Source: a virus | Lineage: Duplodnaviria > Heunggongvirae > Uroviricota > Caudoviricetes | IMG/VR virus record: IMGVR_UViG_640753024_000006 | Location: 1-27,584 of that record | Length of the DNA: 27,584 nucleotides | Direction: 5' to 3' (one strand) | In this document: positions 1,963 through 26,538 of the stretch, in pieces | Numbering within the stretch: the stretch's first letter is position 1 | Layout: every line of letters begins with the position of its first letter | Translations under genes and position numbers: made by a program | The notes under the pieces: generated by a model | What the model saw: only the letters and a program-made list of their open reading frames with translations | What the model was told of the DNA's origin: nothing | Database searches by the model: none

Positions 1963-2730
1963 TTAAAAATCAGCCTGACTCGGGATCAGTTTTTGCCAGA
2001 TAGCTGAAACGTATTTTGCCTGGTGACGAGCGTCATCAAGTGCATTATGGCGCTCACCTTCGAATGGAATAGCCGTTCTGGCATCGAAGCCTATGGCTTT
2101 CCCCAGCTCAACGATTGTGCGTACATCGCGATCGTTGTAGTAACGCCACGGGCAGGGGATCCCCTGCCGTTCGTATGAACGGCGCAAAATCGTGTTGTCG
2201 AAGTTGGCTCCATTTCCCCAGATCTGAACAAAAAATTCACCGGAGTTTTCGGCGATAAATTCCCGCAATTGCAGTAGTGCATCATCTAACGGGATTTCAT
2301 CGGTCAGAATGGCAGATTGCGCCTCGCGTGATTGCTTAAGCCACCATTTAATGGTGTCACGATCAATGACTCCGCCAGCTGTTTCCAGATCGATGGTCTT
2401 GCTAAATTCCGGCCCCATCTCTCCGGTTACTGGATCAAAAAACTTACCGCCAATAGAGTTGATTGGCGCATCAGGATTTTTTCCCATCGTTTCAAGGTCG
2501 ATCATCAGATGGTGCCACACTCTGCTGGTGGATGTGATTTCGTGATGACCGTTCACATTAATTAAGGGAGCTGTCGCCTCGCCAGTTTCATTATCGCTGG
2601 CGTGGTCCTGATACCTGTCAGCATTCTCCTTGTGTGGATGTTCAGCGCCTTCCATTTCCTCCGGATCATTTTCCTGAACTTCAACCTGATTCTCTTCATT
2701 GAATGTTTCCTGGTATGTTGCGTCGCCCAT
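1963..2730 (-). CDS. DnaQ-like (DEDDh) 3'-5' exonuclease with acidic N-terminal extension
   Basis: Motifs LMIDLETMG (Exo I, D-x-E), ...WGNGANFD... (Exo II-like) and H-x(4)-D (HNALDDARH, Exo III) in the translation; sits in the early recombination-gene position. Confidence 0.7.
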
Positions 2731-2807
2731 CACCGCGCCACAATCAGGGCAGTTGCCGCCATCGCTCTGACCGCAGGCGGTGCAGATCTTTTCCGGTTCC
2801 TGTTGCG

Positions 2808-4340
2808 CTACTGGTTCACAGAATCGCGGGTTTCAATCCCCTTCACCCATTTCGGATCATTCGGATCGCTAATCCCTGCAACAAATTCACCACGTGATAC
2901 TGCAAGCAGTTCATCGGCGTCAGGCTGGCTGATATTGGCTGCCTGCATAATGTTGTTTACTTCGTCAGCGGTAACTTTTACCGGCCCTGGTTGTGCGGTC
3001 GTGTCAGATGCACCAGTATTTTGTTGTGAACCTGAGTATGTACCGTTTTTGCGGACGAAATATTCTTCTTTCGTGATTTCAGTAGCCCCGGCAGCCAGTG
3101 CCTTATCCAGACCAGAAAGTTTGTTTGCGCGACCGTATTTTTCGCCATCCTTGTCGGTGAAGAGGAAGTAGAACGGCCCCTCACGCTCTACAGATGGTTC
3201 GACTTCCACTTTGCATTCGGTTTTTTCGTTGTCCGGAATTGCCGTTTCCACTGCATCAGTTTCTGGTACTGGCGACGAGAGAGTATCAGTTGCGATCTGA
3301 TTTGTTCCTTCATCTTCAAACACGCCCTTTGTAGTCAGGTATTCAGTAATGTATTTGTTCAGTGCCACAGGGTCTTTGTGAATGTCGATCGGACGCTCAC
3401 GGACAAGGCCAAAAATAGTCTGGCGGTCGTAGCGAAGGGCATCAGGCTGTTTGCGCATTGATGCCGAGATACGCTTCCAGTCTTCGCGGTCGTTGTTGAT
3501 AACTTCATTTTTTGCCCAGCGATGGATGCTGCCGTCAATGTTTCCGGCATCAATGTCACCAGGCCACAGAGCGTAGGCCAGTTCATCATCCAGTGTTTTC
3601 CATGTCTGCTTGTATTCGCGATGAGTGGCAGCAATGGCCGGGTTGATTTTTCCTGTTGAATTTTCAGTGTTCTGTTGATTGGCTCTGGCGCGGGCGAGAT
3701 CAACAACAGACGTGTATTTTCCGGTTTCCTTGCGTTCACCTTCGCGACGTTTTTTCCAGATGCGCATCTCTGCCTGAATTTCGGGCCATTTGGCACCAGG
3801 CTTACATTTATGCTTAACCCACCCGATGGTATGCAGCTTAAGCTCCGGATACATGGCGTTAACTTCTGGCATTTTCATCAACGCTTCAACGATATGTCCG
3901 TCGAATGTTGCCATGTCTTCCTGCAACAATTCCTGCGCGCTAATCACCATATCAACGGTGATATTTTCACATGTGTCGAACTTAACCATGACAGCGTTCT
4001 GTACTTCAGGGGCCAGCTTGTCAAAAGTGACGTTCATCGGATCTGATTCAGTCTCAACCGGTACAAAGGAAGCAGACTCCTCATCCCAGCGGTTTTCCTG
4101 CATATATTCAGCATCCCAGGAATCGAGGGCAGGGCGGGGTATACCGGGTTTATCCTCGCAAACAAGAAATTTATAAGCGCAGTCCTGAGCAGCCGGATAA
4201 TGTTCCAGGAATTGCCAGTGAAATTTTGCGCGGGCGCGACGTTCATCACCAGCTTCAATGGCAGTGGCTACAGCGACTGCACCTTCTTCCTTTATTGCCT
4301 GTTCGTCCGGAATGGCGGCGCAAATAAAGACTTTACTCAT
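2808..4340 (-). CDS. Hypothetical early protein (510 aa), function unknown
   Basis: Long uninterrupted ORF on the same strand as exo/xis/int; no motif recognised by eye. Confidence 0.6.
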
Positions 4341-4975: not shown

Positions 4976-5373
4976 CTTTAAAAAGGGCGGCAGAGCAGTC
5001 ACGGAGTAAAACTGATACCGCCAAACGCCACCAGAAAATTGATAACAGAGGGCGTTGCAGCGGGGTTGTCACTTAAGCGTATGGTCAACCTGACAACCCG
5101 GTGTCCTCAACGGGGAAGGAATAACCCCGCCATACTTACCGCCGCGCCATTTCGCGGAGTGCCACAACCGGAAGCGCACGGTCGAATTAAATTTAACGAC
5201 ACCGTACAGAGAGACCAATTTCGCCGTGCGCTTTCGCGTTATGCTCTGGCTTTTCAGGGATATATCCTTTCAGTAAACTGTCAGTACCGGATTCTTATCC
5301 GTGTCCGGCGCACGACCACACGTGGCAGCGTGTTGGTCTCCATTTTTAACCCAGAACCTCAATGGAGGATAAA

Positions 5374-6386: not shown

Positions 6387-6616
6387 GTTGACCTCATTTC
6401 CCCTTAACGCCGGGGTGGCGGAACAAAAACCTGCTGCATAGTTATTAAAGTTGAACCCTGCCGTCATGTTCTTACGCCTCGGGCTGGCTACTTAACCCCT
6501 GACCACTGCCTGGTAACTCGAAGTATTGCCCTGCGTTCTGTGGGGCGGGGTGGGTTGGTATTTTTAGTTTAATAAACATTAAACTTAAGTCAAGTAAAAA
6601 CTAAACCTCGGGACAT

Positions 6617-6655
6617 AACAAACGCAACGCTTTTGATAAAGTCGTTGCGGTTGTT
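6617..6655 (-). terminator. Long hairpin (13-bp stem, one mismatch) downstream of the toxin gene; possible terminator
   Basis: aacaaacgcaacg / cgttgcggttgtt around a 13-nt loop; T-rich tract follows only after a short gap on the minus strand. Confidence 0.35.
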
Positions 6656-6677
6656 ATGTTTCTATTGGTAGTGAAAG

Positions 6678-6956
6678 TTAGGGAAACTGGCGTCTTGCGT
6701 GGATCACGTTTACTACTTCAACGCTTGATGTTGTTACGCGGTATAGAATTATATAGTTAGGGTGGGCTACAATCTCACGCAAGCCAGGTACTCTGTCGCT
6801 TGGTGGGTATAAATACGGATGTTCGGATAACGGCAGCACACAACCCCTTAATCGCTGCCATAAGCGTTCAGCCGCATCTATGTCGAAACGAGCAATATAA
6901 CTAGTTATATCATCTAGGTCGGTATCTGCGCTTTCAAGCCATAACACGGGTAACAT
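6678..6956 (-). CDS. Type II toxin, RelE/ParE superfamily
   Basis: About 92 aa; C-terminal IILYRV...VEVVNVIHARR is typical of ParE/RelE toxins; ATG at 6956 directly follows the antitoxin stop (6958-6960). Confidence 0.7.
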   Translation of the reverse strand: MLPVLWLESADTDLDDITSYIARFDIDAAERLWQRLRGCVLPLSEHPYLYPPSDRVPGLREIVAHPNYIILYRVTTSSVEVVNVIHARRQFP

Positions 6957-6957
6957 T

Positions 6958-7149
6958 TTACTGCTTGCTCCGTTCCTTGCGCATCTTAGCAAAGCGTTCT
7001 GCCATTCTGCGCTCAATTTCGTCATGGGGAATTGCTGGGCGCGGATCTGCAAGGCTCGCTGCTACTTTCGCACGCAGCCATTCGTTGTAACTGTTTTCTT
7101 GTTCAATGGTTTCAAATTCAGAAACCATTGGTGAAAGGGCTCTATTCAT
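6958..7149 (-). CDS. Putative type II antitoxin (family uncertain, ParD/stability-determinant-like)
   Basis: 63-aa acidic/basic ORF immediately upstream of and abutting the toxin; GGAGGA RBS before ATG 7149. Confidence 0.6.
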   Translation of the reverse strand: MNRALSPMVSEFETIEQENSYNEWLRAKVAASLADPRPAIPHDEIERRMAERFAKMRKERSKQ

Positions 7150-7169
7150 GTTTCCTCCGGTTTTATAAC

Positions 7170-7541
7170 TCAGGCGCGGCGGCATTTTTGCGCCGCAATC
7201 CATCTCGCTATGAGATCTTCCATTGATTCTTTTTTCTGCTTTAACTCGCTGATTATCTGGCGTTGCTCATCCTCAGGGAAGGCTGAAAAAATCTGCAATA
7301 ACTCCAGTTGATTAGACGTTAACCCTGCATGTGGTGGAGAAACCCCCGGTTGCTCTGAGTATTCCGCATCCAGATACCCTTCCGGCATCCCGTATGTTTG
7401 CTCTATTCTTCTGGCAGCCTTTTCTCCAAACGAGGCTCTCCCACTCATTAGTTGAGATAGGTAGCTCTTCTCTTTGGGTGGCAGAGTTTTATCTTTAAAC
7501 CACTCCTTGAGACGTAAACGGCGAATTTCTTTTTTTTGCAT
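7170..7541 (-). CDS. Prophage repressor, DicA/RacR-like (HTH_XRE N-terminus, DicA-like C-terminus)
   Basis: N-terminal HTH-like segment (SYLSQLMSGRASFGEKAARRIEQTYGM) and C-terminal LELLQIFSAFPEDEQ, similar to DicA as I recall it; divergent from a Cro-like gene. Start taken at ATG 7541; the longer track ORF would run into the operator region. Confidence 0.7.
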   Translation of the reverse strand: MQKKEIRRLRLKEWFKDKTLPPKEKSYLSQLMSGRASFGEKAARRIEQTYGMPEGYLDAEYSEQPGVSPPHAGLTSNQLELLQIFSAFPEDEQRQIISELKQKKESMEDLIARWIAAQKCRRA

Positions 7542-7639
7542 GCGGTAATTATCTTTAGTAATCACTAAACAAGCAAATACTTGACTTAATGGTTTATTAA
7601 ACACTAAACTCACAAAAAAAACACTAAACCGAGGAAGGT
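7542..7639. promoter_or_regulatory. Divergent immunity-region promoter/operator with three direct CACTAAAC repeats
   Basis: CACTAAAC at 7563-7570, 7602-7609 and 7622-7629; TTGACT -35-like hexamer at 7581-7586; lies between the divergent repressor and cro-like starts. Confidence 0.55.
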
Positions 7640-7942
7640 ATGACATTAAAAGAGTTTATTAAATCATTAAGGGTTGGTGATGCTAAGAAATTCGCGGCCA
7701 GACTTGGTGTATCGCCATCTTACTTATCGCAAATGGCGTCTGGACGAACAGCTATATCTCCAACCCGCGCCCTTATGATCGAATCTGCGACGGAAGGCCA
7801 AGTAAGTAGGGCGGAGCTACGACCCCATGATTGGGAGCTTATTTGGCCTGAGTATGCGAGCGGCATTCGTTTGGGGCAAACACATGTAGTTCATGCTGAA
7901 GGTGATTGTAGTGCATGCTTATCTGATGGAGTTGATTCATGA
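7640..7942 (+). CDS. Cro-like HTH regulator (YdaS-like)
   Basis: 100 aa; HTH-like AARLGVSPSYLSQMASGRTAISP; GAGGAAGG RBS; divergent from the repressor. Confidence 0.65.
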   Translation: MTLKEFIKSLRVGDAKKFAARLGVSPSYLSQMASGRTAISPTRALMIESATEGQVSRAELRPHDWELIWPEYASGIRLGQTHVVHAEGDCSACLSDGVDS

Positions 7943-8364
7943 AAATCAAGCATGAACACATCCGCATGGCGATGAATGCCTGGGCGCATCCGGACGGTGA
8001 AAAAGTTCCGGCAGCTGAAATAACCCGGGCTTATTTTGAGCTGGGTATGACGTTCCCGGAACTGTATGACGACAGCCATCCGGAAGCCCTGGCTCGCAAT
8101 ACTCAGAAAATTTTCCGCTGGGTGGAGAAAGATACTCCTGATGCGGTTAAAAAAATTCAGGCGTTGTTACCGGCTATCGAAAAAGCAATGCCACCTTTGC
8201 TGGTGGCCAGAATGCGCAGCCACAGTTCAGCTTATTTTCGGGAGCTGGTGGAGATGCGGGAACGACTGGTGAGAGACGCTGATGATTTTGTCGCAGTGGC
8301 GATCGCTGGTTTCAATCAGATGAATCGTGGTGGCCCGGCAGGAAATGCCTTGGTGATGCACTAA
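7939..8364 (+). CDS. YdaT-like protein (CII-position; Rac YdaT family is reported toxic when derepressed)
   Basis: 141 aa; ATGA overlap with the cro-like stop; position and size match Rac ydaT; family assignment from memory. Confidence 0.5.
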   Translation: MKIKHEHIRMAMNAWAHPDGEKVPAAEITRAYFELGMTFPELYDDSHPEALARNTQKIFRWVEKDTPDAVKKIQALLPAIEKAMPPLLVARMRSHSSAYFRELVEMRERLVRDADDFVAVAIAGFNQMNRGGPAGNALVMH

Positions 8365-12330: not shown

Positions 12331-12540
12331 AAACGGTTTGCAGTGAAAGGGGAGTTAAGTAGAATTGCTGCGGGTGCTTGAGGCTATCTGTCTCAGGCAT
12401 GAACACCAAAGGCAGATAGAGAAAAGCCCCAGTTAACATTACGCGTCCTGCAAGACGCTTAACATTAATCTGAGGCCCAATCTATGTCTCACAAATGTAG
12501 GTTAGCCTCTTACGTGCCGAAAGGCAAGGAGAAGCAGGCT

Positions 12541-12696
12541 ATGAAGCAGCAAAAGGCGATGTTAATCGCCCTTATCGTCATCTGTTTAACCGTCATAGTG
12601 ACGGCACTGGTAACGAGGAAAGACCTCTGCGAGGTACGAATCCGAACCGGCCAGACGGAGGTCGCTGTCTTCACAGCTTACGAACCTGAGGAGTAA
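12541..12696 (+). CDS. hok: Hok/Gef-family type I toxin (HokD/RelF-like)
   Basis: MKQQKAMLIALIVICLTVIVTALVTRKDLCEVRIRTGQTEVAVFTAYEPEE matches the Hok-family pattern (TM helix, conserved C..R..G.EVA.F) and my memory of RelF/HokD; AGGAGA RBS; structured leader upstream. Confidence 0.8.
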   Translation: MKQQKAMLIALIVICLTVIVTALVTRKDLCEVRIRTGQTEVAVFTAYEPEE

Positions 12697-12863
12697 GAGA
12701 CCAGGCGAGGGAGAAATCCCTCGCCACCTCTGATGTGGCAGGCATCCTCAACGCACCCGCACGTAACCCGCTTCGGCGGGTTTTGTTTTTTCCTGGCATT
12801 CTGGTTTACAATTCGCACGCCAGCCTGAACAACTGGCACCTGCTGCGCCAGCAGAGACAACCG

Positions 12864-15297: not shown

Positions 15298-15322
15298 AAA
15301 CCCGCTTAAATGCGGGTTTTTT
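15298..15322 (+). terminator. tR'-like rho-independent terminator
   Basis: aacccgc-ttaaat-gcgggtt stem-loop followed by TTTTTT. Confidence 0.8.
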
Positions 15323-15395
15323 GCTTAACTCTGTGGACCTTTTTATCTGTAGTTGTAAGATATGGATATTCTTACAATTTAGGTCGGTGAGCTTA

Positions 15396-16160
15396 ATGGA
15401 AGAACAGCACGGTAATTACTTTATAAAACGAATTCAGTTGATTGGAAGGGGTGCATTTGGCTTTGTTGAACACGTTAAGGTTTACAACCTCAACAAGGGT
15501 GAATGTGGGGATTATGCTAGAAAGGTTTTAGCCCCCGAAAAACCAGAGCTTTTGGCGCAAATAGAGCAGTTTAGAAGGCGTTTTAAAAGGGAGGTCGTGT
15601 ATCAATCACATTGCGTACATAGCAATATTGTTCCTATTTATTTGTGCGATTTGTTTGCCGAGAATCCATGGTTCATTATGGATAAAGCAGAATGTGATCT
15701 TGAGCACGAAATAACGAACAACCTTCTTACAACAGATCAAAAAATTTCAATAGTGAAAATGGTATTAGATGGTGTAGCTCACATCCATGCGAAAGGCTAT
15801 TTACACAGAGATATAAAACCATTTAATGTCTTGCGATTTAGCGACGGAACATACAAGGTGTCTGATTTTGGTCTGGTAAAAGATACAAATCCCGAAGGGG
15901 ATACCACTAAATTGACCGAGATCGGTACCCGTATGGGAAGTACAAGATATATGGCTCCCGAGATTTTATATAATGCCGAGTATTCAGTTAAGACTGATGT
16001 TTATGCGGTGGGGCGGTTAATTGAGGACTTAAATTTAGATGATAAAAAAATAAAGCCTATCATAGCGAAGTGTACCAGGATGGATAAAGATGATAGATAT
16101 CAGACAATAGATGATGTGGCGTTTGATTTTGTGCATTCTTTTTTAAGGAGTGAGTCATGA
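15396..16160 (+). CDS. Eukaryotic-like (Hanks-type) Ser/Thr protein kinase, minimal kinase domain (255 aa)
   Basis: Subdomain motifs GRGAFGFV (Gly loop), ARK (Lys), HRDIKPFN (catalytic loop), DFG, MAPE (APE), DVYAVG; AT-rich; ATGA overlap with the downstream gene. Confidence 0.85.
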   Translation: MEEQHGNYFIKRIQLIGRGAFGFVEHVKVYNLNKGECGDYARKVLAPEKPELLAQIEQFRRRFKREVVYQSHCVHSNIVPIYLCDLFAENPWFIMDKAECDLEHEITNNLLTTDQKISIVKMVLDGVAHIHAKGYLHRDIKPFNVLRFSDGTYKVSDFGLVKDTNPEGDTTKLTEIGTRMGSTRYMAPEILYNAEYSVKTDVYAVGRLIEDLNLDDKKIKPIIAKCTRMDKDDRYQTIDDVAFDFVHSFLRSES

Positions 16161-16900
16161 TTCAGCTGATAGCGACTTCATCATTCTCGTATCCAAAAGA
16201 ACCAGGTAGGGTCAACGAAGATTCATTGCTTCCTCCCAAAATTGTAGGGGATGGCATCTTATTTGCCGTAGCTGATGGTGTAGGTTCATACACTGGTGCC
16301 AGTCAGGCTTCATCAATGGCAATTGCTGAACTTTCAGCATTGACAAGCTTATCTTTTGACACAGTTCCGGATGTATTTGATGAAGTTAAGCGAAAGGTTA
16401 TGTCGTTAGCTGATGTTAATGATGAGTTCGATAAAGCTGCTACTACACTTACGTTTTGTTATGTTTGTGATAGCGGAATTATTATTGGTCATATTGGTGA
16501 TTGTCGTTTGTATTGCATTGGAGAGAAGAAAGCATACCAATTGACGAAGGACGATACCAGGCATCAGATGCTAATTGATCAGAATATTTTTAAACCCAGA
16601 GATTTGAAGGATAAACCGGGCAAAAATATCTTAACGACGGCGATAGCCTCAAATGTTGATATGGAATACGACTGTGATTTTATCACATGGAAAGATTTAC
16701 CTAGTATTAACGGGGTATATCATCTGTGTATCATGTCTGATGGGGTTCATAACGTTTGGGAAAAACGCCCCAGATTTACATCAAATACGATGAGTAATAG
16801 TCAGAAGTTTTCTAATGGCATTTTGCGTCGTATAGAGAGAGCCGGACCTGATGATGACTTTTCTTTAGTAAGTATAATGGTGCGTGTGACGTCAGATTAG
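16157..16900 (+). CDS. PP2C-family (PPM) Ser/Thr protein phosphatase
   Basis: Motifs RVNEDS, FAVADGVGS (DGxG), HIGDCRLY (GDSR-like) and MSDGV; 247 aa; coupled to the kinase gene. Confidence 0.8.
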   Translation: MIQLIATSSFSYPKEPGRVNEDSLLPPKIVGDGILFAVADGVGSYTGASQASSMAIAELSALTSLSFDTVPDVFDEVKRKVMSLADVNDEFDKAATTLTFCYVCDSGIIIGHIGDCRLYCIGEKKAYQLTKDDTRHQMLIDQNIFKPRDLKDKPGKNILTTAIASNVDMEYDCDFITWKDLPSINGVYHLCIMSDGVHNVWEKRPRFTSNTMSNSQKFSNGILRRIERAGPDDDFSLVSIMVRVTSD

Positions 16901-18566: not shown

Positions 18567-18642
18567 GGCCCTTTAGCTCAGTGGTGAGAGCGAGCGACTC
18601 ATAATCGCCAGGTCGCTGGTTCAAATCCAGCAAGGGCCACCA
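18567..18642 (+). tRNA. tRNA with anticodon CAU (Ile2/lysidine type, ileX/ileZ-like, or Met)
   Basis: Cloverleaf folds by hand: 7-bp acceptor GGCCCTT/AAGGGCC, D-arm GCTC..GAGC, anticodon loop CTCATAA, T-loop GGTTCAAATCC, CCA end. Confidence 0.8.
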
Positions 18643-18643
18643 A

Positions 18644-18720
18644 CCGTCACCAGTTCATCAGGAAAGAGCGTCAACCCTTTAAGTTGAGTGTGCGAGGTTC
18701 GAGTCCCCGGTGGCGGTCCA
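18644..18720 (+). tRNA. Aberrant tRNA-like element (anticodon-loop CCTTTAA, apparent anticodon UUU with C at position 33); possibly a degenerate tRNA
   Basis: Acceptor CCGTCAC/GTGGCGG (one G-U), T-loop GGTTCGAGTCC and CCA end, but non-canonical C33 and a mismatched T-stem. Confidence 0.35.
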
Positions 18721-18722
18721 GT

Positions 18723-18798
<76 letters not shown>

Positions 18799-18801
18799 TA
18801 T

Positions 18802-18876
<75 letters not shown>

Positions 18877-21724: not shown

Positions 21725-22279
21725 ATGAAGGTTAATAAAAAGAAACTTGCCGAAATTTTCAACGTGGATCCGCGAACGATTGAACGCTGGCAGTCTCAGG
21801 GACTCCCTTGCGTCTCCGGAGGTGGTAAGGGCGTTGAATCTGTATTTGATACCTCCATGGCAATTCAGTGGTATGCACAGAGGGAGGCTGATATCGAAAA
21901 TGAAAAACTCCGTAAAGAGGTTGAGGATTACAGAGCTGCCAGTGAGGCAGATCTCCAGCCTGGGACTATTGAGTACGAACGCCATCGACTTACGCGTGCG
22001 CAGGCCGACGCACAGGAGCTGAAGAATGCCAGAGACTCCGCAGAAGTGGTGGAAACCGCATTCTGTACTTTCGTGCTGTCACGGATCGCAGGTGAAATTG
22101 CCAGTATTCTTGACGGGATCCCTCTCTCGGTACAGCGGCGTTTTCCGGAACTGGAAAACCGACATGTTGATTTCCTGAAACGGGATATCATCAAAGCCAT
22201 GAACAAAGCAGCCGCGCTGGATGAACTGATATGGCTTACAGCCGTGTTTCGACTTTCTCCGGGGATTATCTCCGCGTAA
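21725..22279 (+). CDS. nu1: Terminase small subunit Nu1 homolog, C-terminus replaced at a deletion junction
   Basis: N-terminal ~170 aa closely resemble lambda Nu1 as I recall it (conserved ...[60 protein letters not shown]...); the last residues run into lom-derived DNA. Confidence 0.85.
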
Positions 22280-22529: not shown

Positions 22530-22540
22530 GTGGGGTGAAT

Positions 22541-25500: not shown

Positions 25501-25954
25501 GACGAAAACCACATCGTCGTTTGATTACGGCACTAAATCCACGAATAACACCGGGGCGCATACGCACAGTCTGAGTGGCTCTACGGGGTCTGCCGGTGTT
25601 CATACTCATGGTAATGGTATTCGTTGGCCAGGAGGCGGCGGTTCTGCGTTATCATTTTATGATGGCGGTGGGTTCACTTATGTCCAGAATTCACAGTATC
25701 AAGTAAGCCCGGAGACTTCTTCCTATAGATCGTATTATCAACGTATTCAGACACAGTCAGCAGGTGCTCATACCCACTCGCTGTCTGGTACTGCAGCAAG
25801 TTCTGGCGCACATGCACATACTGTAGGTATTGGTGCGCATACGCACTCCGTTGCGATTGGTTCACATGGACACACCATCACCGTTAACGCTGCGGGTAAC
25901 GCGGAAAACACCGTCAAAAACATCGCATTTAACTATATTGTGAGGCTTGCATAA
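22541..25954 (+). CDS. stf: Side tail fibre protein Stf (long Ala/Ser-rich repeat shaft, C-terminal HxH-repeat tip)
   Basis: N-terminus [26 protein letters not shown]... matches lambda Stf as I recall it; ~350-aa Ala/Ser/Thr-rich low-complexity region with KxSETNA repeats; C-terminal GAHTHS/HxH repeats typical of fibre tips. Confidence 0.9.
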
Positions 25955-26538
25955 TGGCATTCAGAATGAGTGAACAAGCACGGACCATAAAAATTTATAA
26001 TCTGCTGGCCGGAACTAATGAATTTATTGGTGAAGGTGACGCATATATTCCGCCTCATACAGGTCTGCCAGCAAACAGTACCGATATTGCACCACCAGAT
26101 ATTCCTGCTGGCTTTGTGGCTGTTTTCAACAGTGATGAGGCATCGTGGCATCTCGTTGAAGACCATCGGGGTAAAACGGTTTATGACGTAGCGTCAGGGG
26201 ACGAGTTATTTATTTCTGAACTCGGTCCGTTACCGGAAAATGTTACCTGGTTATCGCCGGAAGGGGAGTTTCAGAAGTGGAACGGCACAGCCTGGGTGAA
26301 GGATACGGAAGCAGAAAAACTGTTCCGGATCCGGGAGGCGGAAGAAACAAAAAACAACCTGATGCAGGTAGCCAGTGAGCATATTGCGCCGCTTCAGGAT
26401 GCTGCAGATCTGGAAATTGCAACGGAGGAAGAAACCTCATTGCTGGAAGCCTGGAAAAAGTATCGGGTGTTGCTGAACCGTGTTGATACATCAACTGCAC
26501 CTGATATTGAGTGGCCTACGAACCCTGTCAGGGAGTAA
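25954..26538 (+). CDS. tfa: Tail fibre assembly chaperone Tfa
   Basis: 194 aa; start overlaps the stf stop (TAATG); conserved Tfa C-terminal region (...[25 protein letters not shown]...). Confidence 0.85.

Follow-up and report, generated by a model that had tools for sequence, protein, structure and literature searches.

A ParE-type toxin-antitoxin pair downstream of the repressor gene of a defective lambdoid prophage: very probably the known paaR2-paaA2-parE2 operon

[quoted passage not shown] The original prediction, which placed a toxin-antitoxin pair beside the prophage repressor gene, was right in its interpretation, but the system has already been characterised. It is of little weight as a discovery, the system having been named, crystallised and genetically dissected since 2010 and its rexAB analogy being in print. 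The operon structure, the CI-like PaaR2, bistability and the stabilisation of mini-F by addiction are all published (PMC8630535), and the work of Hallez (2010) is summarised in PMC4803016 and PMC8630535. What the window contributes is context, in the form of small additions: the limits of the cassette, its prevalence in E. coli, its occurrence in a live coliphage, and, elsewhere in Proteobacteria, a stand-alone two-gene form of the pair that would have been its source. The system illustrates clearly how a toxin-antitoxin pair can give up its self-regulation and be wired into the lysis-lysogeny switch of a phage, and a pair wired in this manner may explain the persistence of defective prophages and immunity cassettes.

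Results

Gene layout and identity of the three proteins

The three open reading frames are intact and tightly packed in the order repressor-antitoxin-toxin (Table 1), so that regulator, antitoxin and toxin follow one another on one strand with gaps of 20 nt and 1 nt. The claim that the pair lies directly downstream of the prophage repressor gene, all on the minus strand, was borne out by the reading of the open reading frames, the upstream gene being the CI-equivalent (PMC8630535). The repressor and antitoxin genes are as close as had been proposed, but the untranslated gap between the paaR2 stop and the paaA2 ATG is 20 nt (7169-7150) rather than 21 nt, the latter figure being a coordinate difference; this gap contains the Shine-Dalgarno sequence of paaA2, GGAGG, at 7158-7154. 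Similarly, the antitoxin stop and the toxin ATG are adjacent but do not strictly abut, as a single base (6957) intervenes. Given the 1-nt spacing, paaA2 and parE2 are likely to be translationally coupled. Chance open reading frames as the source of the three genes were ruled out by PDB identities and Pfam scores.

ParE2 was identical at all 92 of its 92 residues to chain B of PDB 5CW7 (E=7e-60); crystallised ParE2 is also found in 5CZE and 5CZF, and weaker matches were obtained with 3KXE, 6X0A and 5CEG (E-values 4e-5 to 8e-4). The identity to solved ParE2 structures answers the question of whether the toxin has the ParE/RelE fold. In the profile search, ParE2 scored 60.9 bits against Pfam PF05016 ParE_toxin (cut-off 23), covering profile positions 1-89 of 89, and 21.4 bits against the RelE/StbE NCBIfam model, under its cut-off of 27.9. 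This places the toxin in the ParE branch and not among the RelE mRNA interferases. The HMM check, together with the PDB identities and the Pfam assignment of PaaA2, confirmed the proposed ParE/RelE-type toxin with its antitoxin and placed it more precisely. ParE2 is known to colocalise with the nucleoid and to trigger the SOS response (PMC8630535).

The antitoxin, PaaA2, showed 61 of 63 residues identical to PaaA2 in PDB 3ZBE and 5CW7, the substitutions being T30A and V44I, and scored 72 bits against Pfam PF21217 ("stability determinant"; cut-off 27) and 82.7 bits against NCBIfam NF050103. No second domain was found in the Pfam search of this 63-residue protein, which lacks a DNA-binding domain; its profile, its short length, the lack of such a domain and the position of its gene directly upstream of parE2 are those of the PaaA2 family. 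PaaA2 is protease-labile (PMC8630535), its degradation by ClpAP and ClpXP being known from the literature on an approximately 99% identical locus. According to PMC4803016, PaaA1 and PaaA2 do not cross-neutralise.

Residues 1-61 of PaaR2 are identical to the solved PaaR2 N-terminal domain (PDB 7NKV, 8C3K and 8C3L), and the protein as a whole is 98% identical to those of O157:H7 and phage Evi. The differences from the O157:H7 protein, A62S and G67V, both fall in the linker between an N-terminal HTH domain and a C-terminal oligomerisation domain. An S24 autocleavage domain is typical of CI repressors. PaaR2 matched no Pfam family in the Pfam search, and there was no Peptidase_S24 match; its C-terminus weakly matches the DicA C-terminus. 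PaaR2 acts like CI and stands outside the CI/LexA family, in agreement with the literature: in the reference locus it shows CI-like behaviour, mainly represses PR and PL, and produces bistability together with YdaS (PMC8630535).

Table 1. Coordinates of genes and regulatory features of the immunity region (positions in the window).
Feature	Position	Strand	Description
paaR2 repressor	7541..7170	-	ATG at 7541, TGA ending 7170, 123 aa
paaA2 antitoxin	7149..6958	-	ATG at 7149, TAA 6960-6958, 63 aa
parE2 toxin	6956..6678	-	ATG at 6956, stop ending 6678, 92 aa
Stem-loop	6614..6658	-	20 nt past the parE2 stop, without U-tract
OL/PL region	6561..6610	-	Downstream of parE2
PL	6593-6566	-	TTGACT-16-TAAACT; hexamers identical to PR
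OR region	7542..7639		98 bp between paaR2 and divergent ydaS
PRM, predicted	7576-7548	-	TTGCTT-17-GATAAT; ends 6 nt before the paaR2 ATG; hexamers read from the sequence
PR	7581-7610	+	TTGACT-18-TAAACT
ydaS, Cro-equivalent	7640..7942	+	Pfam YdaS_toxin and HTH_3; function from PMC8630535
YdaT operator OM	7932..7949	+	TTGATTcatgaaAATCAA, at the ydaS/ydaT junction
ydaT, CII-equivalent PRE activator	7939..8364	+	Pfam YdaT_toxin; function from PMC9986795 and PMC8630535

Operators and promoters of the immunity region

The surroundings of the three genes showed the features of a lambdoid immunity region, namely divergent repressor and Cro-like genes, repeated operators, OL/PL, and a CII-like gene with its operator; the S24 (LexA-like) autocleavage domain is the feature absent, from PaaR2. 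OR contains three repeats of the GTTTAGT half-site (GTTTAGTG), at 7562-7570, 7601-7609 and 7621-7629, and differs from the O157:H7 sequence at three places (one extra T in a T-run and two substitutions). For the reference locus, footprints, transcription starts and leaderless translation have been published, the first base of the leaderless paaR2 mRNA being the A of the ATG (PMC8630535). On the other side of the operon, OL contains a half-site of the GTTTAGT type, GTTTAGTTT, at 6606-6598 and a palindrome, GTTTAATGTTTATTAAAC, at 6584-6567. PL drives the leftward early genes (a DUF1391 gene and others); its counterpart PL933P, with OL1-3, is repressed about 100-fold by PaaR2 and YdaS (PMC8630535).

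On the plus strand, ydaS and ydaT are followed by replication genes. The YdaT motif, TTGATTN6AATCAA, and its footprint are known (PMC9986795), and OM is the sole exact match to this motif in the window. OM is the site associated with PRE, at which the paaR2-paaA2-parE2 transcript can alternatively start (PMC9986795, PMC8630535).

Transcription of the pair with the repressor gene

Co-transcription of the pair with the repressor gene, as originally suggested, was supported by the consensus scan, in which no promoter-like or terminator-like site was found on the minus strand from 7541 to 7149, and by the single operon published for the approximately 99% identical O157:H7 locus. There, paaR2-paaA2-parE2 is transcribed as one operon from the leaderless PRM and from the YdaT-activated PRE (PMC8630535), and full repression needs PaaR2 (PMC8630535, PMC4803016). 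The paaR2 3' end can form a small hairpin without U-tract, which was no more stable than shuffled sequence (z=-0.86). A minus-strand promoter-like site inside parE2 (6937-6909) matched 9 of 12 positions, and was attributed to chance as the total for the region was within the expectation from shuffles. The sequence is consistent with a single transcript, which, by extrapolation from the O157:H7 locus, would be formed in this strain too.

The stem-loop beyond parE2 had a folding energy of -26.1 kcal/mol, as compared with -10.9±2.5 for shuffles (z=-6.0), and is kept in the O157:H7 and Evi loci with one G-C to G-U change. Its position resembles that of lambda t_imm, and it may form the 3' end of the operon or stabilise the transcript.

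Relation to known systems

The closest relative is RAE2 of the O157:H7 prophage CP-933P/Sakai Sp12 (Hallez 2010; Sterckx 2014, 2016; Jurenas 2021), which shares gene order, spacing, the layout of operators and promoters, ydaS, ydaT and the YdaT operator. Over the 1.18 kb of OL-parE2-paaA2-paaR2-OR, the mean column identity to O157:H7 strain Gim1-1 and to phage Evi was about 99%. The present locus differs by the few point changes in OR, PaaR2 and PaaA2 given above, and by the setting of its cassette in another mosaic backbone, for which the closest matches are in ETEC strains, beside a DUF2335 gene.

A paralogue of the paaR1-paaA1-parE1 type (CP-933M-like), exemplified by locus L004 of strain OkiPb01709, has the same regulator-antitoxin-toxin order in a prophage immunity region, divergent from YdaS-like and YdaT genes as in the paaR2 locus. 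The toxins of the two loci are 70%, the antitoxins 84% and the C-terminal domains of the regulators 53% identical, whereas the regulator HTH domain and the Cro-like protein of L004 have no detectable similarity to those encoded here; L004 is therefore a heteroimmune cassette. The PaaR C-terminal domain, PaaA and ParE are thus kept between heteroimmune cassettes while the HTH domain, the operators and Cro are swapped. To judge from these sequences, such a conserved block could reflect a functional coupling of the repressor oligomerisation domain with the toxin-antitoxin pair.

The proposal that the pair occupies the position of rexAB is already in print, the pair being said to "replace rexB and rexA" (PMC9986795). 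As in lambda cI-rexA-rexB, the accessory genes are distal on a leaderless PRM/PRE transcript and are flanked by the repressor gene and OL/PL; two sets of operators serve the repressor, and the Cro-like and CII-like genes are divergent (PMC8630535; PMC9986795). The resemblance is positional only, however, since there is no homology between PaaR2 and CI or between the pair and RexAB (Pfam matches being ParE_toxin and PaaA2 only). PaaR2 also differs from CI in being without the autocleavage domain, and the OR of RAE2 has four repeats as compared with three operators in lambda (PMC8630535). Whereas RexAB excludes phages, RAE2 has been shown to act in addiction only.

The toxicity of ParE proteins is usually due to gyrase poisoning. 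Canonical parDE systems (RK2 ParDE, Vibrio cholerae ParDE2 and Caulobacter ParDE1) share with this locus the ParE fold of the toxin and the upstream position of the antitoxin gene. They differ in that PaaA2 belongs to family PF21217 and has no RHH DNA-binding domain, regulation here being by a separate phage repressor, and in that ParE2 is reported neither to bind GyrA59 nor to inhibit gyrase (PMC10886550). ParE_SO/CopA_SO of the Shewanella prophage CP4So and PfiT/PfiA of the Pseudomonas phage Pf4 are likewise prophage-borne ParE pairs, with links to the maintenance or production of the prophage (PMC10886550, PMC13048266); compared by description, they differ in having two components and a DNA-binding antitoxin and in lying outside a CI/Cro switch.

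Cassette limits, prophage context and distribution

In a sister prophage, whose flanks are otherwise collinear with those here at 95-98% identity, exactly 6562-7932 is replaced by another cassette, which encodes a CI-type repressor with HTH and S24 domains and a P22-Cro-type protein and contains no toxin-antitoxin pair. The pair travels within a swappable immunity cassette, 6562-7932, extending from the PL +1 to the end of ydaS. The prophage of the window is defective, its RecE-like exonuclease gene being frameshifted and its head and tail genes deleted from the small terminase subunit gene to the tail-fibre gene. A host outside E. coli was ruled out, as the sequence on either side is 99.9-100% identical to E. 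coli chromosomes.

The pair was found at at least 95% identity in 592 records, and paaR2 with OR at at least 95% identity also in 592, among 5426 genomes, these counts being totals and not a measure of linkage per genome. About 11% of complete E. coli genomes contain the pair, which reaches at least 99% identity in 576 records. The same intact module is carried by Evi, an isolated, plaque-forming coliphage (isolation: PMC10910852). In other Proteobacteria, PaaA2 was directly upstream of ParE2 in 76 of 80 species loci; none of the 80 had homologues of PaaR2, YdaS or YdaT within 3 kb, and no consistent third gene preceded PaaA2-ParE2, the upstream open reading frames being heterogeneous and mostly spurious in appearance. 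A three-component layout as a general rule was rejected, as no upstream regulator is conserved in these loci. These data are evidence that the pair was acquired from a larger pool of two-gene pairs in Proteobacteria.

Discussion

On the model drawn from the reference locus, PaaR2 would bind the GTTTAGT-type operators at OR and OL and thereby repress PR, with ydaS, ydaT and the replication genes, as well as PL, while at a low level it would stimulate its own leaderless PRM. Without a promoter of their own, paaA2 and parE2 would be expressed from the distal part of the repressor mRNA, whether it starts at PRM or at the YdaT-activated PRE. PaaA2, an unstable substrate of ClpAP and ClpXP, would wrap around ParE2 and neutralise it, and the freed ParE2 would act as a nucleoid-associated, SOS-inducing toxin of the ParE fold. 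Since the antitoxin is less stable than the toxin, loss or replacement of the cassette would poison the cell. As an addiction module, the pair would thus hold the immunity cassette, and the defective prophage with it, in the chromosome. The suggestion that the pair stabilises lysogeny agrees with published work, in which the system stabilised mini-F by post-segregational killing and the authors proposed stabilisation of the immunity region (PMC8630535). In the same study, no ParE2 activity was detected in either expression state of the reference system (PMC8630535), so that its natural benefit is still a proposal. Extrapolated from the approximately 99% identical locus, both toxicity and addiction would probably apply in this strain.

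Several type II toxin-antitoxin pairs defend against phages, which speaks for a further reading, doubtful in our view, that the pair is, besides or instead of an addiction module, a RexAB-like device for abortive infection or superinfection exclusion. Infection would then lead to decay of PaaA2 and arrest by ParE2, the trigger being either the shut-off of host or prophage transcription by the phage or the activation of Clp or Lon proteases. The pair does stand in the rexAB slot, from repressor gene to OL/PL, and a lysogen would express it together with the repressor; PaaA2 is labile to proteases (PMC8630535), and the prophage has a Ser/Thr kinase that matches the PD-T4-6 and Stk2 models of PADLOC and is likely a further exclusion gene. 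However, PaaR2, PaaA2 and ParE2 matched none of the PADLOC 2.0 families at E≤0.01, the Pfam search did not relate them to RexA or RexB, the literature searched contained no experiments on phage defence by RAE2, and ParE2 was not activated in the reference study under its conditions (PMC8630535). A role in such exclusion, or in protecting the cassette from being replaced by heteroimmune phages, is given a low probability.

We consider it very unlikely that PaaR2, instead of being a prophage repressor, is the DNA-binding part of a "split antitoxin" that has become a separate protein and serves only to regulate the pair. This idea, discussed by the authors of PMC8630535, fits the lack of a DNA-binding domain in PaaA2 and of an S24 domain in PaaR2, but is at odds with OL/PL, where, 1 kb away on the far side of the toxin gene, the operator half-sites recur together with a promoter whose hexamers are those of PR. 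Also against it are the divergence of paaR2 from a Cro-like and a CII-like gene with replication genes behind them, the exchange of the cassette as a whole (PL +1 to ydaS end) for a classical CI/Cro cassette, and the primary repression of PR and PL by PaaR2, with YdaS-dependent bistability (PMC8630535).

It is likewise very unlikely that paaA2-parE2 is a self-contained pair of genes with a promoter of its own, and that its adjacency to the repressor gene is without significance for regulation. The 20-nt gap holds a Shine-Dalgarno sequence, and neither there nor inside paaR2 was a promoter-like site found on the minus strand; published expression is from one operon that needs PaaR2 for full repression, the record counts of the pair and of paaR2 with OR are equal (592 each at at least 95% identity, as totals only), and the divergent paralogous cassette keeps the regulator-antitoxin-toxin order. 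These observations outweigh the stand-alone arrangement in other Proteobacteria, with PaaA2-ParE2 in 76 of 80 loci, PaaR2, YdaS or YdaT in none and no consistent third gene upstream, and a partial repression of the paaR promoter by the PaaA-ParE complex, reported in PMC4803016. An operon governed by the prophage repressor, with the pair acting in addiction, is the reading that we prefer. That the module is a decaying, non-functional remnant of a dead prophage, as the frameshift in the RecE-like gene and the deletion of head and tail genes could suggest, is scarcely credible, since none of the three open reading frames is disrupted, ParE2 does not differ at any residue from the toxic protein that was crystallised, the pair is at least 99% identical in 576 records, and the plaque-forming coliphage Evi has the same intact module.

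Identity and organisation of the three genes

The three consecutive minus-strand genes are the paaR2-paaA2-parE2 three-component toxin-antitoxin system, whose first description is credited to Hallez et al. 2010 in PMC8630535 and PMC4803016. The toxin was identical over 92 of 92 residues to ParE2 of PDB 5CW7/5CZE, distantly matched other ParE structures (3KXE, 6X0A and 5CEG), and scored 60.9 bits against Pfam ParE_toxin; its score against the RelE/StbE model was under the model threshold. The antitoxin shared 61 of 63 residues with PaaA2 of PDB 3ZBE/5CW7 (substitutions T30A and V44I) and scored 72 bits against Pfam PaaA2. These HMM and structure matches bear out the predicted ParE/RelE-type pair, and place the toxin in the ParE branch. 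Residues 1-61 of the repressor were identical to the solved N-terminal domain in PDB 7NKV/8C3K/8C3L, titled 'Phage repressor protein CI', and the full-length protein was 98% identical to its O157:H7 homologue; the pair thus lies directly 3' of a prophage repressor. The original prediction had the gene coordinates right. Its 21-nt repressor-antitoxin spacing holds as a coordinate difference, but the actual gap is 20 nt and contains a GGAGG Shine-Dalgarno sequence. A single base separates the paaA2 stop from the parE2 ATG.

Features of the immunity region and of the surrounding prophage
Feature	Position	Strand	Basis or remark
RecE-like exonuclease gene	1963-4340	-	broken
DicF antisense sRNA	4985-5036	-	Rfam, 76.4 bits
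Second promoter, hexamers as in PR	6593-6566	-	scan; 3' of parE2
Strong hairpin 3' of parE2	6614-6658		-26.1 kcal/mol, z=-6.0, no U-tract
parE2 toxin, 92 aa	ATG 6956, stop ending 6678	-	ORF reading
paaA2 antitoxin, 63 aa	ATG 7149, TAA 6960-6958	-	ORF reading
GGAGG Shine-Dalgarno	7158-7154	-	paaR2-paaA2 gap
paaR2 repressor, 123 aa	ATG 7541, TGA ending 7170	-	ORF reading
Weak PRM TTGCTT-17-GATAAT	7576-7548	-	predicted; our reading of the sequence
PR-like promoter TTGACT-18-TAAACT	7581-7610	+	promoter scan; paaR2-ydaS spacer
T-run with extra T	7611-7620		between two OR repeats
ydaS	7640-7942	+	divergent from paaR2; Pfam YdaS_toxin and HTH_3
YdaT motif TTGATTN6AATCAA	7932-7949		exact match; ydaS/ydaT junction
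ydaT	7939-8364	+	divergent from paaR2; 3' of ydaS
hok/sok-type type I toxin-antitoxin locus	12372-12700	+	Rfam sok at 12372-12546, 117.7 bits
Ser/Thr protein kinase gene	15321-16160	+	3' of antiterminator Q region
PP2C phosphatase gene	16157-16900	+	overlaps kinase gene
tRNA cluster	18567-18876	+	ARAGORN
Tail-fibre assembly ORF	25954-26538
Rfam IS009 RNA family	26297-26495	+	225 bits

Operators, promoters and transcription signals

The paaR2-ydaS spacer is 98 bp long and carries three GTTTAGTG repeats. The predicted PRM ends 6 nt 5' of the paaR2 ATG, which fits the published leaderless transcript (PMC8630535). The promoter 3' of parE2, set within a GTTTAGT half-site and a palindrome of 18 bp, corresponds to the published PL933P/OL (PMC8630535). 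The YdaT motif, taken from PMC9986795, has its single exact occurrence in the window at the ydaS/ydaT junction; beyond ydaS and ydaT come an O-like HTH replication gene and a DnaC/IstB-like ATPase gene.

A 1.18-kb alignment from OL to OR, of the window with an O157:H7 genome and coliphage Evi, had a mean column identity of about 99%. In OR, the window differed from O157:H7 in three places, namely a T-run with one extra T, a C-to-T change, and an A-to-G change two bases 5' of the paaR2 ATG. The spacer is 98 bp rather than the published 97 bp because of the extra T. O157:H7 and Evi have one fewer T in this run, and the extra base shifts the spacing of the ydaS-proximal OR repeat to the next repeat by 1 bp.

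Function of the locus

Published work on the approximately 99% identical locus has shown that the three genes form an operon down-regulated by PaaR2, which is translated from a leaderless mRNA, that PaaR2 and YdaS footprint OR and both repress PRM, PR and PL, and that low PaaR2 levels activate PRM (PMC8630535). YdaT activates PRE, giving an alternative operon transcript (PMC8630535, PMC9986795). PMC8630535 further describes a bistable and heritable immunity switch, breakdown of PaaA2 by ClpAP and ClpXP, and SOS induction by ParE2; ParE2 was reported neither to bind GyrA59 nor to inhibit gyrase (PMC10886550). The position of lambda rexAB, to which the pair had been likened, is in print in the statement that paaA2-parE2 'replace rexA and rexB' (PMC9986795). 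The suggested stabilising role likewise agrees with the finding that the locus stabilises a mini-F plasmid equally to ccdAB, and with the authors' proposal that it guards the immunity region from loss or replacement (PMC8630535). Given this literature, all elements of the original interpretation except abortive infection had therefore already been published. Overall, the analysis confirmed the observation and supported its interpretation, for a system that was already known.

The best explanation is very probably the published one, in which the repressor-driven operon would serve as an addiction module that maintains both immunity cassette and prophage. An additional Rex-like defence function of the pair is improbable and unsupported; PADLOC gave no matches for the three proteins, and the literature search found no experimental paper on it. 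It is unlikely that the pair is autonomous and driven by a promoter of its own; neither a promoter-like nor a terminator-like site turned up between paaR2 and paaA2 in the scan, and a small GC hairpin at the paaR2 end was not significant in the folding test. The scan result and the published operon instead support the predicted co-transcription with the repressor. It is also unlikely that PaaR2 is merely a split antitoxin or that the module is a decayed remnant.

A swappable immunity cassette in a defective prophage

Both flanks of the window were 99.9-100% identical to E. coli, and the window is an E. coli chromosome segment with a mosaic, defective lambdoid prophage. Overall, ETEC prophages come closest to it (76% coverage, 97.5% identity), and their immunity cassette is different. 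In pairwise BLAST against an otherwise collinear ETEC prophage with 95-98% identical flanks (L001), homology broke at exactly 6561/6562, just past the PL -10 hexamer, and restarted at 7933, the ydaT start. Window 6562-7932 is replaced there by L001 9114-10177, which encodes an HTH+Peptidase_S24 CI-type repressor and a P22-Cro-type protein and lacks the toxin-antitoxin pair. These breakpoints show that the pair travels inside the classical swappable 'imm' unit, in the order OL/PL, pair, repressor, OR, cro.

Homology to the intact ETEC prophage stops at 22030, within the small terminase subunit gene, and a 1139-aa tail-fibre gene begins at 22535; the entire head/tail module is therefore missing and the prophage defective. 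Residues 1-508 and 540-823 of an intact 823-aa RecE-like homologue match different reading frames, indicating a deletion and frameshift, and thus a pseudogene.

Distribution and relatives

Among 5426 complete genomes, the pair and paaR2+OR were each found at ≥95% identity in 592 records, consistent with tight linkage, and the whole 2.1-kb region in 590 genomes (~11%). Coliphage Evi (LR597642), whose isolation from infant stool is noted in PMC10910852, carries an intact paaR2-paaA2-parE2-ydaS-ydaT module (L002 4119-5382), so the module is not confined to dead prophages. In Evi, ParE2 is identical, and K55R is the sole difference between PaaA2 and the O157:H7 reference protein; the Evi record leaves the parE2 ORF unannotated.

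A paralogous cassette of E. coli OkiPb01709 (L004 2473-4166) keeps the gene order. Its toxin, antitoxin and regulator C-terminal domain were 70%, 84% and 53% identical to those of the window, whereas the regulator HTH domain and the Cro-like protein were unrelated, making it heteroimmune; conservation thus covers a block made up of the regulator C-terminal domain and the pair.

A wider survey with one genome per species yielded 80 ParE2 relatives (47-74% toxin identity) across Alpha-, Beta- and Gammaproteobacteria, including Acetobacteraceae, Acidithiobacillus, Pseudomonas and Bartonella. A PaaA2-like gene lay directly upstream in 76 of the 80 loci. The pairs are widespread there as stand-alone two-gene modules with short, non-DNA-binding antitoxins (about 63 aa); none of the 80 loci had a PaaR2, YdaS or YdaT homologue within 3 kb, and no third gene recurred consistently. 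These loci lend support to the idea, already proposed in the literature, that the enterobacterial immunity region captured a two-gene cassette.

Other features of the prophage

The kinase matched PADLOC models mad6, PD-T4-6 and Stk2, with E-values as low as 3e-40, and is therefore likely a prophage-encoded exclusion or defence kinase. The hok/sok-type locus, at whose homologous place hokD is annotated in L001, is a second addiction-type module in the same prophage; IS1203 is inserted just 3' of this locus in L001 and is absent from the window. DicF lies in the PL-side early region, where related prophages have an annotated dicB cell-division inhibitor gene. In the tRNA cluster, ARAGORN called four genes, CAT (Met, or Ile2 if lysidine-modified), Lys-TTT, Thr-TGT and Gly-TCC, as against three by Rfam gathering score and homologous RefSeq annotation, the Lys-TTT call (18644-18720) being uncertain. 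The tail-fibre assembly ORF holds the IS009 match in its 3' portion.
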